Positions 27,874 through 32,565 of a stretch of DNA of 64,000 bases are shown one piece after another. The position numbers were made by a program, and so were the translations under genes. Numbering within the stretch: position 1 is the first letter of the stretch; every line of letters starts with the position of its first letter. The stretch comes from Pachysolen tannophilus NRRL Y-2460 (Eukaryota), in the NCBI GenBank assembly GCA_001661245.1, contig KV454014.1, positions 574,954-638,953 of the forward strand. Direction: 5' to 3'. Below the pieces are notes generated by a model. It searched no databases, was not told where the DNA came from, and was given only the letters and a program-made list of their open reading frames with translations.

Positions 27874-29049
27874 TCAAGAGATAATTCTTGAACCAGTACC
27901 TGCATTAGGAATTTTTGGTAATTTGCTCATCAACTTCTTTCTTGAAAACTGCGGTATCTTTCTAGAAGGATCTCTAAATGGATGTGCATTTGCATCTGCA
28001 ATTAACTTTTCTCTTAATTGACCCCCACGATCAAGAACTTTTTTAGCTTCTTTCTTGGAATTCTTGGAAACGTTTGGAATCTTTGGAGTATTTGGCAGTC
28101 TATTTGGTTTGAATTTGTCAGTTGAAAAAAAATTTTGTTGAACATCATTTGCCTTTATTAAAGGTGTTACAGGTGAATCTGGTGCTCTATTTGGGCCAGG
28201 CGCTGGTTCTTCGTCATTAATTTTTGCATTTTTCTGATCCAAATGCGTTTCTTTTGGATTTTCAGTTAAAACAGTAGCTTGTTTTTGAGCCTGGGTTTGG
28301 GTTTGGGTCTGGGTCTGGGTCTGTGTTTCAGTATGTGCTTCAGTCTGTGCTTTATCCTGTGCTTTATCCTGTGATTGAACTTCAGCTTGAGCTTGAGCCT
28401 TTGTATTTTCTTTATTTACTTTTTCAAACTCATTCGTGGTATAATTTGGGTCTGTAAATTTTGGATTTTGATCTGATTTGTAAGGGTCACCTCTTAGTCT
28501 TCTATCAGAAAATGTAGGCAATAATTCAATTTTATTTGCGCTTGCTCGAACCAAACCTTGAGCCTGTACGTTCGATTGATCTAAATGACTTTTAACCCCA
28601 ATATCCTTTTTAGGTAGCTTGGCTGCTGCAGCAAATTGTTTAAACTCCAGCTCAACTTCTTCTGGTTTAATAAAACTGATTTTACCATAACTTTTATGTT
28701 TTCCCTTTTTGTTTCCAACCTTAGTTGTTATCAGCTTTGTAGGTGTTGGTGCTGGTGTAGCAGTTGTACGTAATTGTGGAGGAGGAGGTGGAGGGTTATC
28801 CAACATTTCAAGACAAGTACCCAAATAGTGGTCTCTAGCACTTTCAAAAGTACCATAGGGACAAATGCTAAGGAGACAGTTTGTGATCTCTTTTTCTTTT
28901 GCACAAAGACAAGTAAAATTTCTATGTGTCATTGGACAGTAATGAGCATAATTATTGATACATGACAAAAAACAAGCTGGTGGAGTTGCTGATACTAAGT
29001 TAACTAAAAAGGGTATGGTAACGGAAACTAAAAGAATAAAGTATTTCAT
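27874..29049 (-). CDS. Secreted CFEM-domain protein (Ccw14-like N-terminus)
   Basis: ATG at 29049; signal peptide MKYFILLVSVTIPFLVNLVSA; 8-Cys domain TPPACFLSC...C...CLC...CLLSICP...C; P/T/Q-rich stalk. Confidence 0.8.
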   Translation of the reverse strand: MKYFILLVSVTIPFLVNLVSATPPACFLSCINNYAHYCPMTHRNFTCLCAKEKEITNCLLSICPYGTFESARDHYLGTCLEMLDNPPPPPPQLRTTATPAPTPTKLITTKVGNKKGKHKSYGKISFIKPEEVELEFKQFAAAAKLPKKDIGVKSHLDQSNVQAQGLVRASANKIELLPTFSDRRLRGDPYKSDQNPKFTDPNYTTNEFEKVNKENTKAQAQAEVQSQDKAQDKAQTEAHTETQTQTQTQTQTQAQKQATVLTENPKETHLDQKNAKINDEEPAPGPNRAPDSPVTPLIKANDVQQNFFSTDKFKPNRLPNTPKIPNVSKNSKKEAKKVLDRGGQLREKLIADANAHPFRDPSRKIPQFSRKKLMSKLPKIPNAGTGSRIIS

Positions 29050-29788
29050 CTTTACTGGATTTTTCAATTGTATTTTGGCCAAATATTGAAATTATATTTG
29101 CACCAGAATTAATCGGTTTCCTATATAGTAAAATATGTTTATTAATTCTAAAACTGTACTAAATTTTTATCATACTATAATACTACAAAACACTTTCATC
29201 TATTCTCTTTTTCCTAAAAGGCCTTCAACGCATCAAAGCTTTAACTATAGTCTTGGGTTTCAATGAGTTTCCTCATTTTTGTGGTTTTTCAAGAAACTTG
29301 ATTCTCTTTCGAAATGCAAGATTATGCATACCAGAAACAATATGAGCCGCACACGTTTGGGTCTTCAAAAATTAGACCATCAAAAGTACGATATTCATCA
29401 GTTCAAGACATTTAGTGGTTACAGCGATCTGAAATGGAGAAAAGAAAAAACCGAATTTCGAATATTTTTACTTTGCTTTCTGTGAATGATCGGGGAAACT
29501 AATTTGAAAAAATTAAGCTGCAAATATTCAGATACCTGGATACGGTAAAGTGTATTCCTACTATTTTCCTGTTAAATACGTAAACACGAAATTTAAGCGA
29601 GACTTCAGTTCAACTGTATTTATTTTTATTCATAATTATGTAATAATAACGGGGTTAATTTTAAAAATTATTAAATACTAGATCTTATTCATAGCTAAAA
29701 TTTTGAAAAACAGTACTCCAACTAAGTTACTTAGAAAGAAAGTAGGTACAGAGTAAAGAATTATTCGAAAAAAGGACTAATTTTTCCT

Positions 29789-30802
29789 TTACTGAGGGAT
29801 TTCTAAAACTATTTTACCAGAAGTTTTTCTATCTTCCAATAGCTGTGTCGCAGTAGCATAATCCTTTAATGGGAAAGTCTTAAAAATGTTGATTTTTAAA
29901 TCACCATTATCAATCAATCTTAACAACTCTTTCGAATAATATTCCCACTCTTCAGGCTCGGTAACATAACCATAGAGCATTGGTCTTAAAACTTTCAAAT
30001 TTTTAGAACTCAATTTCATTATTGAAAGTGGTGGAACAGCTCCTGAAGCATTTCCAAAAGAAACAAAAGTACCTTTTCTAGCTAAGGAATCAAGTGAAAT
30101 ATCAACGGTATCTTTACCGATACCATCGAACGAAGCAATAACACCTTTACCATTCGTAAATTCTTTTACTTTTTCAACGATATTATCAGTCTTGGAATTG
30201 ATTAAAAATTTGGCTCCAAATTTTTTAGCCAACTGTAATTTTTCATGGGTTGATGCTGTTGCAATAACATGAGCACCTCTTTCTGTAACAAGCTGCGTAA
30301 AAATTAAACCACATCCTCCAGCTGCTGCATGTATTAAAATATAATCACCTTTTTGAACATTGTAGGCCTCAGTGATAAAAGTTAATACAGTTAAGCCATT
30401 GACTATCGATCCAGCATAAAGTTTCAACTGTTCGTCAGTAACACCATCATCCAATTTCACAATTTTGGATTTCGGATCATATTTTGTATATTGTGCAAAA
30501 GTGTTATTACTCAAGTAAGCAACTTTATCACCAGGTTTAAAACCTTTAACATTTTTACCCACAGCAGCAACGACACCGGAAGCTTCTCTACCTAAAACGT
30601 TAGGTAAAGCTGAAGGATATAAACCTGATCTGAAATAAGAATCAATGAAATTGATACCAGCAAACTTATTCTTGACGAGAATTTCATCTTCAGAAATACT
30701 TGGAACTGGGAAGTCTTCTTCATACCTTAAGACCTCAGGGCCACCAGTTTCTCTGTAAAGAACGACTTTTTGAGTTTTTGGGATTTCAAATAAAGTTGTC
30801 AT
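29789..30802 (-). CDS. ZTA1: NADPH:quinone reductase (zeta-crystallin family); possible TTG-initiated extension to 30898
   Basis: Motifs GGPEVL, AGINFIDSYFRSGLY, GREASG, HAAAGGCG, SFGNASG, TSGKIVL. Confidence 0.93.
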   Translation of the reverse strand: MTTLFEIPKTQKVVLYRETGGPEVLRYEEDFPVPSISEDEILVKNKFAGINFIDSYFRSGLYPSALPNVLGREASGVVAAVGKNVKGFKPGDKVAYLSNNTFAQYTKYDPKSKIVKLDDGVTDEQLKLYAGSIVNGLTVLTFITEAYNVQKGDYILIHAAAGGCGLIFTQLVTERGAHVIATASTHEKLQLAKKFGAKFLINSKTDNIVEKVKEFTNGKGVIASFDGIGKDTVDISLDSLARKGTFVSFGNASGAVPPLSIMKLSSKNLKVLRPMLYGYVTEPEEWEYYSKELLRLIDNGDLKINIFKTFPLKDYATATQLLEDRKTSGKIVLEIPQ

Positions 30803-31257
30803 ATTTCTGGCAAATACTGGATATATTATTGAGTTTTTCAATAAAAATTTTGAAGAAGAAAAGCTATGAGTTGCTAACTTTGCAATTGACCGAAACAATT
30901 TTGAAAATTTTTATATTGAAGGAATCTCGAGTATTTAATTATCAAATTAATGATAAATCGATTAGTAATATACAGGGACGGAATTAGTACCCGATGTTAA
31001 TTTAAATCAAATTTAGTGGGTGAAAAATAAAAATGAAAATAAATACAACCACAGTTTTTTTTTTTTTTTTATTTTTTTTTATTTTTACAAGTACGAATTA
31101 TAAATAGTTTTATCATATCAAAATAAAAGAAGCAGTAAAAATAAAAATAAAAGCTGAAATAATTAAAAAGTCTCATTATAAAAAAGCTTTGATGATAAAA
31201 CTATACATACAAAAAAATTTTCTTGGTCTCACAGAAACCATCAATTTCCTTAACCTT

Positions 31258-32565
31258 TTAGTCATCGGTATTCTCTTTCTCTTTATAAGATTGGACTCTT
31301 TCCTTATTATGTTTAGCAGTCATTATAACCTGATGTAGAGCATCGAGATGAGGATTCGATTTCGACTTGGTATTCGCACTATTGTTGGATTCGCTGCTAA
31401 TACTTGACAGAGAAGGGTTACTCAAATGAGTCCTCTCCAAGGCATCCAATAATGATTTCCCTCTTTCACCTGGAAGATTCAGTGATAACGAACTAACTGA
31501 TGACGATGACAGACTTGACAAGTGATAATCTAGTTCAGATACATCATCATCTGTTTCACTTGCCAAACTCTTTAGACGCTTGATACGGTTATTCAATCTG
31601 ACCAATTCTATAACTTCTCTAAACTTCTTTCTAGCATCGAAACCTTCTTTAACATTAGGCAAGAGATCGAATTCCTTATGTAACTTACAAGTTTCAATTA
31701 GCCAACTATCTGTGAGTAATTCTCTTACAGTTGGTCTATCGGAAGGATTTGGCAGTAATGCTTTTAATATGAAAAATCTAGCATCTTTGGATATGTTACT
31801 CCAATATCTTTCATGAAAGATAACTGGATTATTATAATTTACTTCTTCCAAGAAGTCATGTACATTCTCAGCACGAAATGGTAAATAACCACAAAGCAAA
31901 GTATAAGTTATAACACCCAATGACCAAATATCACAAGGTTTACCATGACCAGTACCTTTTAAAACTTCAGGAGCTACATATCCAAATGAGCCAGCCATTG
32001 AAGTTAATAATTGATCTGGAGTACTCAATTTTTTCGCAATACCAAAATCTGCCAATACAATCGGAGATGAATCCGACTTATCTAAATATAGGACATTTTC
32101 AGGTTTTACATCTCTATGAACAATATCTTGATCATGTAAATAACCTAAGGCGAGTAAAATCTGGTAGATCACTTCTCCTGCATCATTTTCAGTAAATGAA
32201 CCTTTTTCAACAATTCTTTCAAACAATTCGCCACCAATTGCCAACTGAGTAACAATATAGATTTTGTCTTTACTTTCAAACCAATCTCGAAATCCAACAA
32301 TATTTGGATGATTTAAATTCTTTAACATATTGATCTCATCATAAACAACTTGTTCATGTCCCTTTAAAGCATTTTTCAACATGATCTTTATAGCAACTTC
32401 TTCCCCTGTAGAATTGTTTCTGGCATGTCTAACAACACCAAATGAACCAGCACCTAAAGTTTTACCAAATGTATAATTTTGCTTGAGTGCATAAGATTCA
32501 GGCTGTCCAGTTATCTTATTCACAATTTTACTAAAATTATGATGATTATGATGAGTCTGCATCAT
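31258..32565 (-). CDS. CMK2: Ca2+/calmodulin-dependent protein kinase (CMK1/CMK2 family)
   Basis: [35 protein letters not shown]; CaM-binding region [20 protein letters not shown]. Confidence 0.9.

Follow-up and report, generated by a model that had tools for sequence, protein, structure and literature searches.

In Pachysolen tannophilus, the ZTA1 gene probably has a real mitochondrial isoform that is started at a UUG codon, which would place it in the same class as GRS1 and ALA1. We infer a long mRNA, leaky initiation at UUG, mitochondrial import and cleavage, together with the promoter function discussed below. The strongest support for this isoform is comparative and comes from the Zta1 homologues. 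The window (the whole 64-kb stretch of DNA that was analysed) contains the following features of the gene and its upstream region:

29789..30802, minus strand: ZTA1 coding sequence, 337 aa, a zeta-crystallin/Qor-type NADPH:quinone reductase; ATG with A at -3
30803..30898, minus strand: ATG-free in-frame extension of 32 codons; 5 basic and 0 acidic residues, residues 1-11 amphipathic, Arg at -2
30895..30902, minus strand: TTG at 30898-30896, preceded by AAAA (-4..-1) and followed by T (+4); predicted near-cognate start
30839..30841, minus strand: another in-frame TTG, extension codon 20, with T at -3 and a 13-residue leader; weaker alternative start
31258..32565, minus strand: Ser/Thr kinase gene in tandem, upstream of ZTA1; its stop bounds a 456-nt intergenic region

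Judged by its sequence, the product of the coding region is a Zta1-type NADPH:quinone reductase. It is a full-length MDR-fold Qor sequence with domains PF08240 and PF00107, is 47-65% identical to fungal Zta1 proteins (homologue set, n = 119), and clusters with the yeast Zta1 proteins in the tree. The top PDB match was 3qwa (E 1e-128), S. cerevisiae Zta1 (YBR046C), which is the nearest solved structure. Translation of the extension and the coding sequence is unaffected by the CTG code, because neither contains a CTG codon. The kinase gene on the upstream side is one that we take to be CMK-like. Downstream of ZTA1, a minus-strand gene (27874-29049) has a signal-peptide-like start, QT/QA repeats and a cysteine-rich domain, presumably CFEM-like; its product had no match in NCBIfam. 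Two ZTA1 paralogues also lie in tandem in the genome (L003:1486-2508 and L002:1462-2505, G000:C2; 47-49% identity, long branches). They have only 3 and 14 open upstream codons, with no presequence-like leader on either, and are possibly cytosol-only duplicates. A PDB search made alongside the CTG-code check of these paralogues gave no match.

An earlier note on this DNA had proposed that a presequence is hidden above the annotated ATG, and its description of the sequence was borne out when the letters were re-read. The TTG at 30898 stands in an AAAA context, and the frame is open for 32 codons from there to the ATG at 30802. The in-frame TAA just above the TTG is at 30913-30911, four codons upstream, and from this TAA the ZTA1 frame is open on the minus strand down to the stop at 29789. 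No ATG occurs in any frame between 31116, the nearest one above the TTG, and 30802. The extension reads LFRSIAKLATHSFSSSKFLLKNSIIYPVFARN (the first L being the TTG) and, as claimed, is acid-free and rich in R, K, S, F and L (2 R, 3 K, 6 S, 4 F, 3 L), with Arg at -2. Residues 1-11 have a hydrophobic moment of 0.68, a value reached by 12 of 385 candidate extensions, and residues 13-31 a low one (0.08-0.32); folding of the leader gave weak AU-rich structure only. This combination of basic, acid-free and amphipathic character with Arg at -2 makes the extension look unusually presequence-like. Counting against a translated extension is the lack of coding-type codon bias (log ratio -1.8, versus +10.1 for the first codons of the coding sequence). 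The TTG differs from ATG by one base only and might be a miscalled ATG, a possibility that the earlier note had raised. Logan contigs from four runs (word depth 65-119) span 29300-31018 without a gap or a differing letter and agree on TTG; all four runs are from one sample, from which the assembly itself may have been made. A miscall is thereby largely refuted and retains next to no probability.

It could also be argued that AT-rich leader DNA happens to be stop-free here and reads as K/F/S/L/I-rich by chance. The background consisted of 264 long ORFs taken from the 64-kb window and from 600 kb of this genome. At least 32 open upstream codons were present in 40 of the 264 genes (some of these being intron or start-call artefacts), so the length of the extension carries no evidential weight. 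Dinucleotide shuffling of the leader DNA gave 2693 stop-free sequences out of 20000, and 998 of these 2693 had no D or E. Taken alone, open-frame length, the absence of acidic residues and a GC content of 0.28 (equalled or exceeded in 25% of genes) were each rejected as evidence. The absence of acid together with at least 5 basic residues and Arg at -2 was found in 21 of the 2693 stop-free shuffles. We also computed leader-likeness, a log-odds score trained on the leaders of the Zta1 homologues; the extension scored 0.24 per residue (homologue leave-one-out median 0.33, lower quartile 0.18), which was attained by 7 of the 2693 stop-free shuffles and by 15 of 1121 overlapping genomic upstream windows. 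ZTA1 was the sole gene among the 264 to pass a strict filter (A at -3, no uATG, no acid, at least 3 basic residues, at least 2 R), 8 passed a looser one, and an in-frame near-cognate codon between AAAA and T was found in 5, with a clear presequence-like peptide from ZTA1 alone; these filters were set post hoc, after the peptide was known, and presequence likeness is defined by our own scores. A separate near-cognate candidate is seen in the gene at L028:4066-6721, where an in-frame ATT in AAAA..T context goes with a fairly amphipathic 19-codon extension. Several chance cases are expected over the thousands of genes in the genome, and the within-genome statistics are suggestive only. Nonetheless, the score that so few shuffles reach, and the occurrence of such a leader on the same gene in 37 of 119 homologues with none on the two tandem paralogues, argue against chance, which we regard as quite improbable.

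In 73 of the 119 Zta1 homologues the annotation begins at the Met corresponding to ATG 30802 (Met 2), and in 37 a leader of 7-70 aa precedes it; the remainder are 5 truncated calls, 3 very long calls and 1 aberrant call. The 37 leaders, which are not independent samples, all have a net charge of at least +2, and they are acid-free in 31 cases and carry Arg at Met-2 in 18. Several are just 9-14 aa long. Leader-bearing homologues are spread through the tree, from Pezizomycotina and Lipomyces to Saccharomycetaceae. For the leaders sourced from NCBI (n = 14), where the ATG is assumed from the annotation of proteins only, Arg is at -2 in 11, and 13 belong to named species of Kluyveromyces, Lachancea, Torulaspora, Naumovozyma, Pichia, Kuraishia, Lipomyces, Pseudocercospora and Daldinia. 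The junction itself reads PVFARNM in P. tannophilus and PLFARNM in homologue P0114.

The 73 annotations that begin at Met 2 count against the UUG isoform, and they include the closest proteins to ZTA1 in the tree (P0003, P0010 and P0016, by protein annotation alone). Such short annotations are not proof that a leader is absent, because near-identical proteins have been called both with and without one (P0041 vs. P0048, the W. anomalus cluster, and P0189 vs. P0176). One and the same start appears as V in P0027 but as M in P0125, and the initial M in Logan, ENA and JGI calls may stand for GTG or TTG. In some clusters, one or two members are extended and the rest are annotated from Met 2 (P0189, Brettanomyces; P0192, Debaryomyces; P0027/P0125, Komagataella). 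The leader of P0189 appears presequence-like, hinting at non-AUG leaders in further yeasts.

Start codons could be read directly at loci from a metagenome scan, which returned 80 loci, mostly bacterial Qor-like. The upstream DNA was read for 12 of the 80 (8 fungal-type with a usable 5' end, 1 ending at a contig edge and 3 bacterial-type). Two in-frame ATGs were found at 5 of the 8 fungal loci (L030, L033, L035, L080 and L097), with T, C, T, C and G at -3 of the first ATG and A at -3 of the second in all five. This order, a weak-context ATG followed by a strong-context ATG, reads as a leaky-scanning signature. The other 3 fungal loci had no such leader (one offered just 41 nt of upstream DNA), and a near-cognate start was seen in no other ZTA1 among the 8 fungal metagenome loci readable as DNA, none of them from a budding yeast. 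As to whether relatives keep the extension or have an ATG in its place, a point that the earlier note had left to comparison, the picture is divided: 37 of the homologues have a leader and five of the fungal loci start at ATG, but the 73 are annotated as beginning at Met 2.

The same comparison bears on the possibility that the extension is a relic, in which an ancestral AUG-started presequence was silenced (by a change of ATG to TTG, or by a new TATA) and has not decayed, leaving the cytosolic form only. A relic would be consistent with a TTG that is one base off ATG, with a TATA match that overlaps the region and with the apparent lack of a leader in S. cerevisiae; the nearest homologue, at just 65% identity, is too distant to test selection. 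However, the first ATGs of the homologues are mostly in weak context, so simple loss predicts a weak context, whereas the context of the TTG is optimal for UUG. The peptide is also intact and acid-free and has retained Arg at -2. We consider a relic unlikely.

With regard to transcription, the intergenic region contains the following elements:

30908..30915, minus strand: TATAAAAA, the sole perfect TATAWAWR of the intergenic region, containing the in-frame TAA; 17 nt upstream of the TTG and 113 nt upstream of the ATG; putative
30962..30968, minus strand: TTACTAA, 166 nt above the ATG and 53 nt above the TATA match; putative, presumably (at 30968) a Yap1/Cap1-type site
30988..30993, minus strand: CGGGTA, which we take to be a Reb1-like core, near a candidate upstream TSS at ~30995; speculative
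31055..31080, minus strand: poly(dA) tracts, with several one-mismatch TATA-like sites at 31106-31071; possible promoter for a long leader

The TATA match counts against the UUG isoform, as at 17 nt above the TTG it would be expected to place the TSS inside the extension. According to the available text of PMC7849388, the TSS lies ~30 nt below a TATA box in the classic arrangement, or 40-120 nt below it in the scanning arrangement of most budding yeasts. The TSS predicted from the TATA match is 30885 or lower, and six TSS-like sites lie in the extension, 43-97 nt below the TATA. TATA-driven mRNAs would lack the UUG because their TSS would fall inside the extension, and the UUG isoform would require an mRNA longer than the TATA-driven one. 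TSS-like sites above the TTG are found at 30995 and 30932. The 215 nt above the TTG contain no ATG (118 of 3000 shuffles; a gap as long in 34 of 264 genes), which weakly fits a long leader. TATA matches in the 264 promoters showed no sense-strand enrichment and were equally common antisense, and for that reason a single match is no proof of a promoter. The position of TTACTAA above the TATA match would fit a working stress promoter.

If all mRNAs did start below the TATA match, within the extension, the mitochondrial form would come from a later codon (TTG at codon 20, or ATA at codon 24 or 25, with a leader of 8-13 residues) or would not be made. This agrees with the TATA geometry and with the several homologue leaders of 9-14 aa, but it fits poorly with a peptide whose amphipathic part is residues 1-11 (0.68) rather than residues 13-31 (0.08-0.32), and with a later TTG that has T at -3. 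We rate this arrangement as rather improbable. The earlier proposal that leaky scanning leads to dual targeting stands in part. The presequence and the UUG start are backed by the homologues, by the context shared with GRS1 and by the genome's own GRS1 (see below), but the version with one mRNA is probably incomplete, considering the TATA match 17 nt above the TTG.

It is also conceivable that splicing supplies an AUG, from an exon beginning at ATG 31241 and an intron running from GTATGT at 31210 to TAG at 30874, in frame with the last 24 extension codons. The 5' splice site is canonical, the first YAG past TACTAAT is in frame, and the 10-residue exon peptide is basic. Nevertheless, ATG 31241 sits 17 nt beyond the kinase stop, the GTATGT shares letters with TATGTA, a polyadenylation-type element belonging to the kinase gene, and the branch point would lie 87 nt from the AG, an atypical spacing (most are 12-45 nt). 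There is no TACTAAC in this region, and pairing with 5' sites was found for 32 of 200 TACTAAT, compared with 32 of 197 for the control TACTAAA and 28 of 94 for TACTAAC. Splicing of this kind appears very improbable.

For the UUG isoform, which remains our preferred reading, we suggest the following course of events. The mRNA would start above 30898, and most scanning ribosomes would bypass the UUG and initiate at AUG 30802, yielding the 337-aa cytosolic reductase. A minority would initiate at the UUG, in its optimal AAAA..U context, yielding a 369-aa precursor with a 32-residue presequence for import into the matrix, where MPP probably cleaves at the Arg(-2) site, directly before the second Met. 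The TATA 17 nt above the UUG would give rise to shorter, UUG-less mRNAs that encode the cytosolic form only, and the ratio of isoforms may also follow TSS choice. The gene would then be a local variant of a widespread ascomycete Zta1 layout, start 1 followed by the presequence and then Met 2, with AUG as the usual first start and UUG here. More tentatively, Zta1 could be an unrecognised dual-targeted enzyme across ascomycetes, with a start that flips between weak AUG and near-cognate codons; in P. tannophilus, a long mRNA with the UUG would serve mitochondria and a Yap/TATA stress promoter the cytosol only, with oxidative stress shifting the distribution. We hold this broader scheme to be possible, though doubtful.

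Published localisation data for Zta1 count against a mitochondrial form. In the supplementary table of PMC12707816, S. cerevisiae Zta1 is listed as 'not observed' by split-GFP, although as soluble matrix in one proteomic set. The Zta1-GFP of C. albicans is described as cytoplasmic in the available text of PMC10732081; a minor matrix pool would be masked in such an experiment. Zta1 of both species is reported as cytoplasmic, whereas that of P. tannophilus is proposed to be also mitochondrial. The same supplementary table gives S. cerevisiae ZTA1 a maximum extension of 7 and a low prediction of 0.137 (columns as interpreted here; PMC12707816), so that the upstream extension is at most 7 units in S. 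cerevisiae versus 32 codons in P. tannophilus. In the accessible parts of two further studies, S. cerevisiae Zta1 is in Morgenstern class 3, where mitochondrial proteins are under-represented (PMC5494306), and is listed in a pull-down of mitochondrial Nfs1 (PMC5675994), which is weak evidence. C. albicans Zta1 is induced by quinones and H2O2 (PMC10732081, available text). Within an incomplete coverage of the literature, no paper on a Zta1 presequence was found by title or abstract. The base rate also needs to be considered: Monteuuis et al. 2019 predicted the gain of a presequence for 517 of 6110 S. cerevisiae genes, with Ribo-seq support for only 123 of them (PMC6582344, available text).

If the UUG isoform is real, the annotation would need to be corrected, since the protein on record is the 337-aa form. 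A matrix NADPH:quinone reductase would be added to the fungal mitochondrial proteome, Zta1 having so far been described as cytoplasmic, and the swap between weak AUG and near-cognate starts would extend from tRNA synthetases to a redox enzyme. The near-cognate mechanism itself is already known, and the leaders in 37 of 119 Zta1 homologues are the more useful lead.

Other genes of P. tannophilus served as controls for near-cognate initiation. The single GRS1 in the genome has 76 open upstream codons without an in-frame ATG (L152:2265-2517, minus strand), and a TTG 47 codons upstream, with AAA before it and T after it, opens a presequence-like peptide. The GRS1 enzyme is needed in both the cytosol and mitochondria. 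Because it must serve both compartments, near-cognate starts are very probably used in this genome. GRS1 is split in the assembly into two halves on opposite strands (L152:1444-3747; G000:C8:897438-899588) with no N gap between them; as the gene is essential, this is probably a local misassembly or inversion of ~1 kb. ALA1 (L149:1363-1452) and CRS1 (L153:1339-1401) each have a weak-context first ATG, a leader and a second in-frame ATG. TRZ1 (L154:1198-1500) has a 97-codon ATG-free frame with many near-cognate codons above its first ATG and likely carries a non-AUG mitochondrial extension, but as a control it was uninformative, with too many candidate codons. Upstream of its first ATG, VAS1 (L155:1177-1210), the sole ValRS to exceed the family cut-off, is open for just 10 codons, in which no presequence can be seen.

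Compared with Zta1 proteins that have an AUG-started leader (K. lactis P0008, L. mirantina P0019, T. globosa P0046, P. kluyveri P0048, L. starkeyi P0117 and D. loculata P0121), P. tannophilus ZTA1 shares a basic, acid-poor leader that ends in R-x ahead of a second Met in the matching position. Alignment of the leaders breaks down beyond the junction, and start 1 of these proteins is Met (ATG where read, mostly in weak context), whereas P. tannophilus has TTG in strong context. The weak-first and strong-second AUG pattern was described for dual-localised proteins by Wallace et al. 2020, and weak AUG and near-cognate starts have been swapped several times in fungal synthetases (available text of PMC7049704). 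ZTA1 is not named in the main texts of PMC6582344 and PMC7049704, as far as these were available, nor in one supplement of PMC7049704.

In S. cerevisiae, the mitochondrial isoforms of ALA1 and GRS1 start at ACG and UUG, respectively, and ALA1 of P. tannophilus has two in-frame ATGs instead of the ACG. In S. cerevisiae GRS1, the UUG is preceded by four A (-4..-1) and followed by U at +4 (PMC7075259, available text), a context identical to that of the P. tannophilus ZTA1 TTG. Like GRS1 and ALA1, and like the genes described in the available texts as MT-NTE (PMC6582344) and DualNCC (PMC7049704), ZTA1 combines an upstream in-frame near-cognate codon with a presequence-like extension and a downstream AUG for the cytosolic form. 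ZTA1 differs from GRS1 and ALA1 in the TATA match directly above its UUG and in being a case known from sequence alone, and it encodes a quinone reductase where they encode tRNA synthetases.
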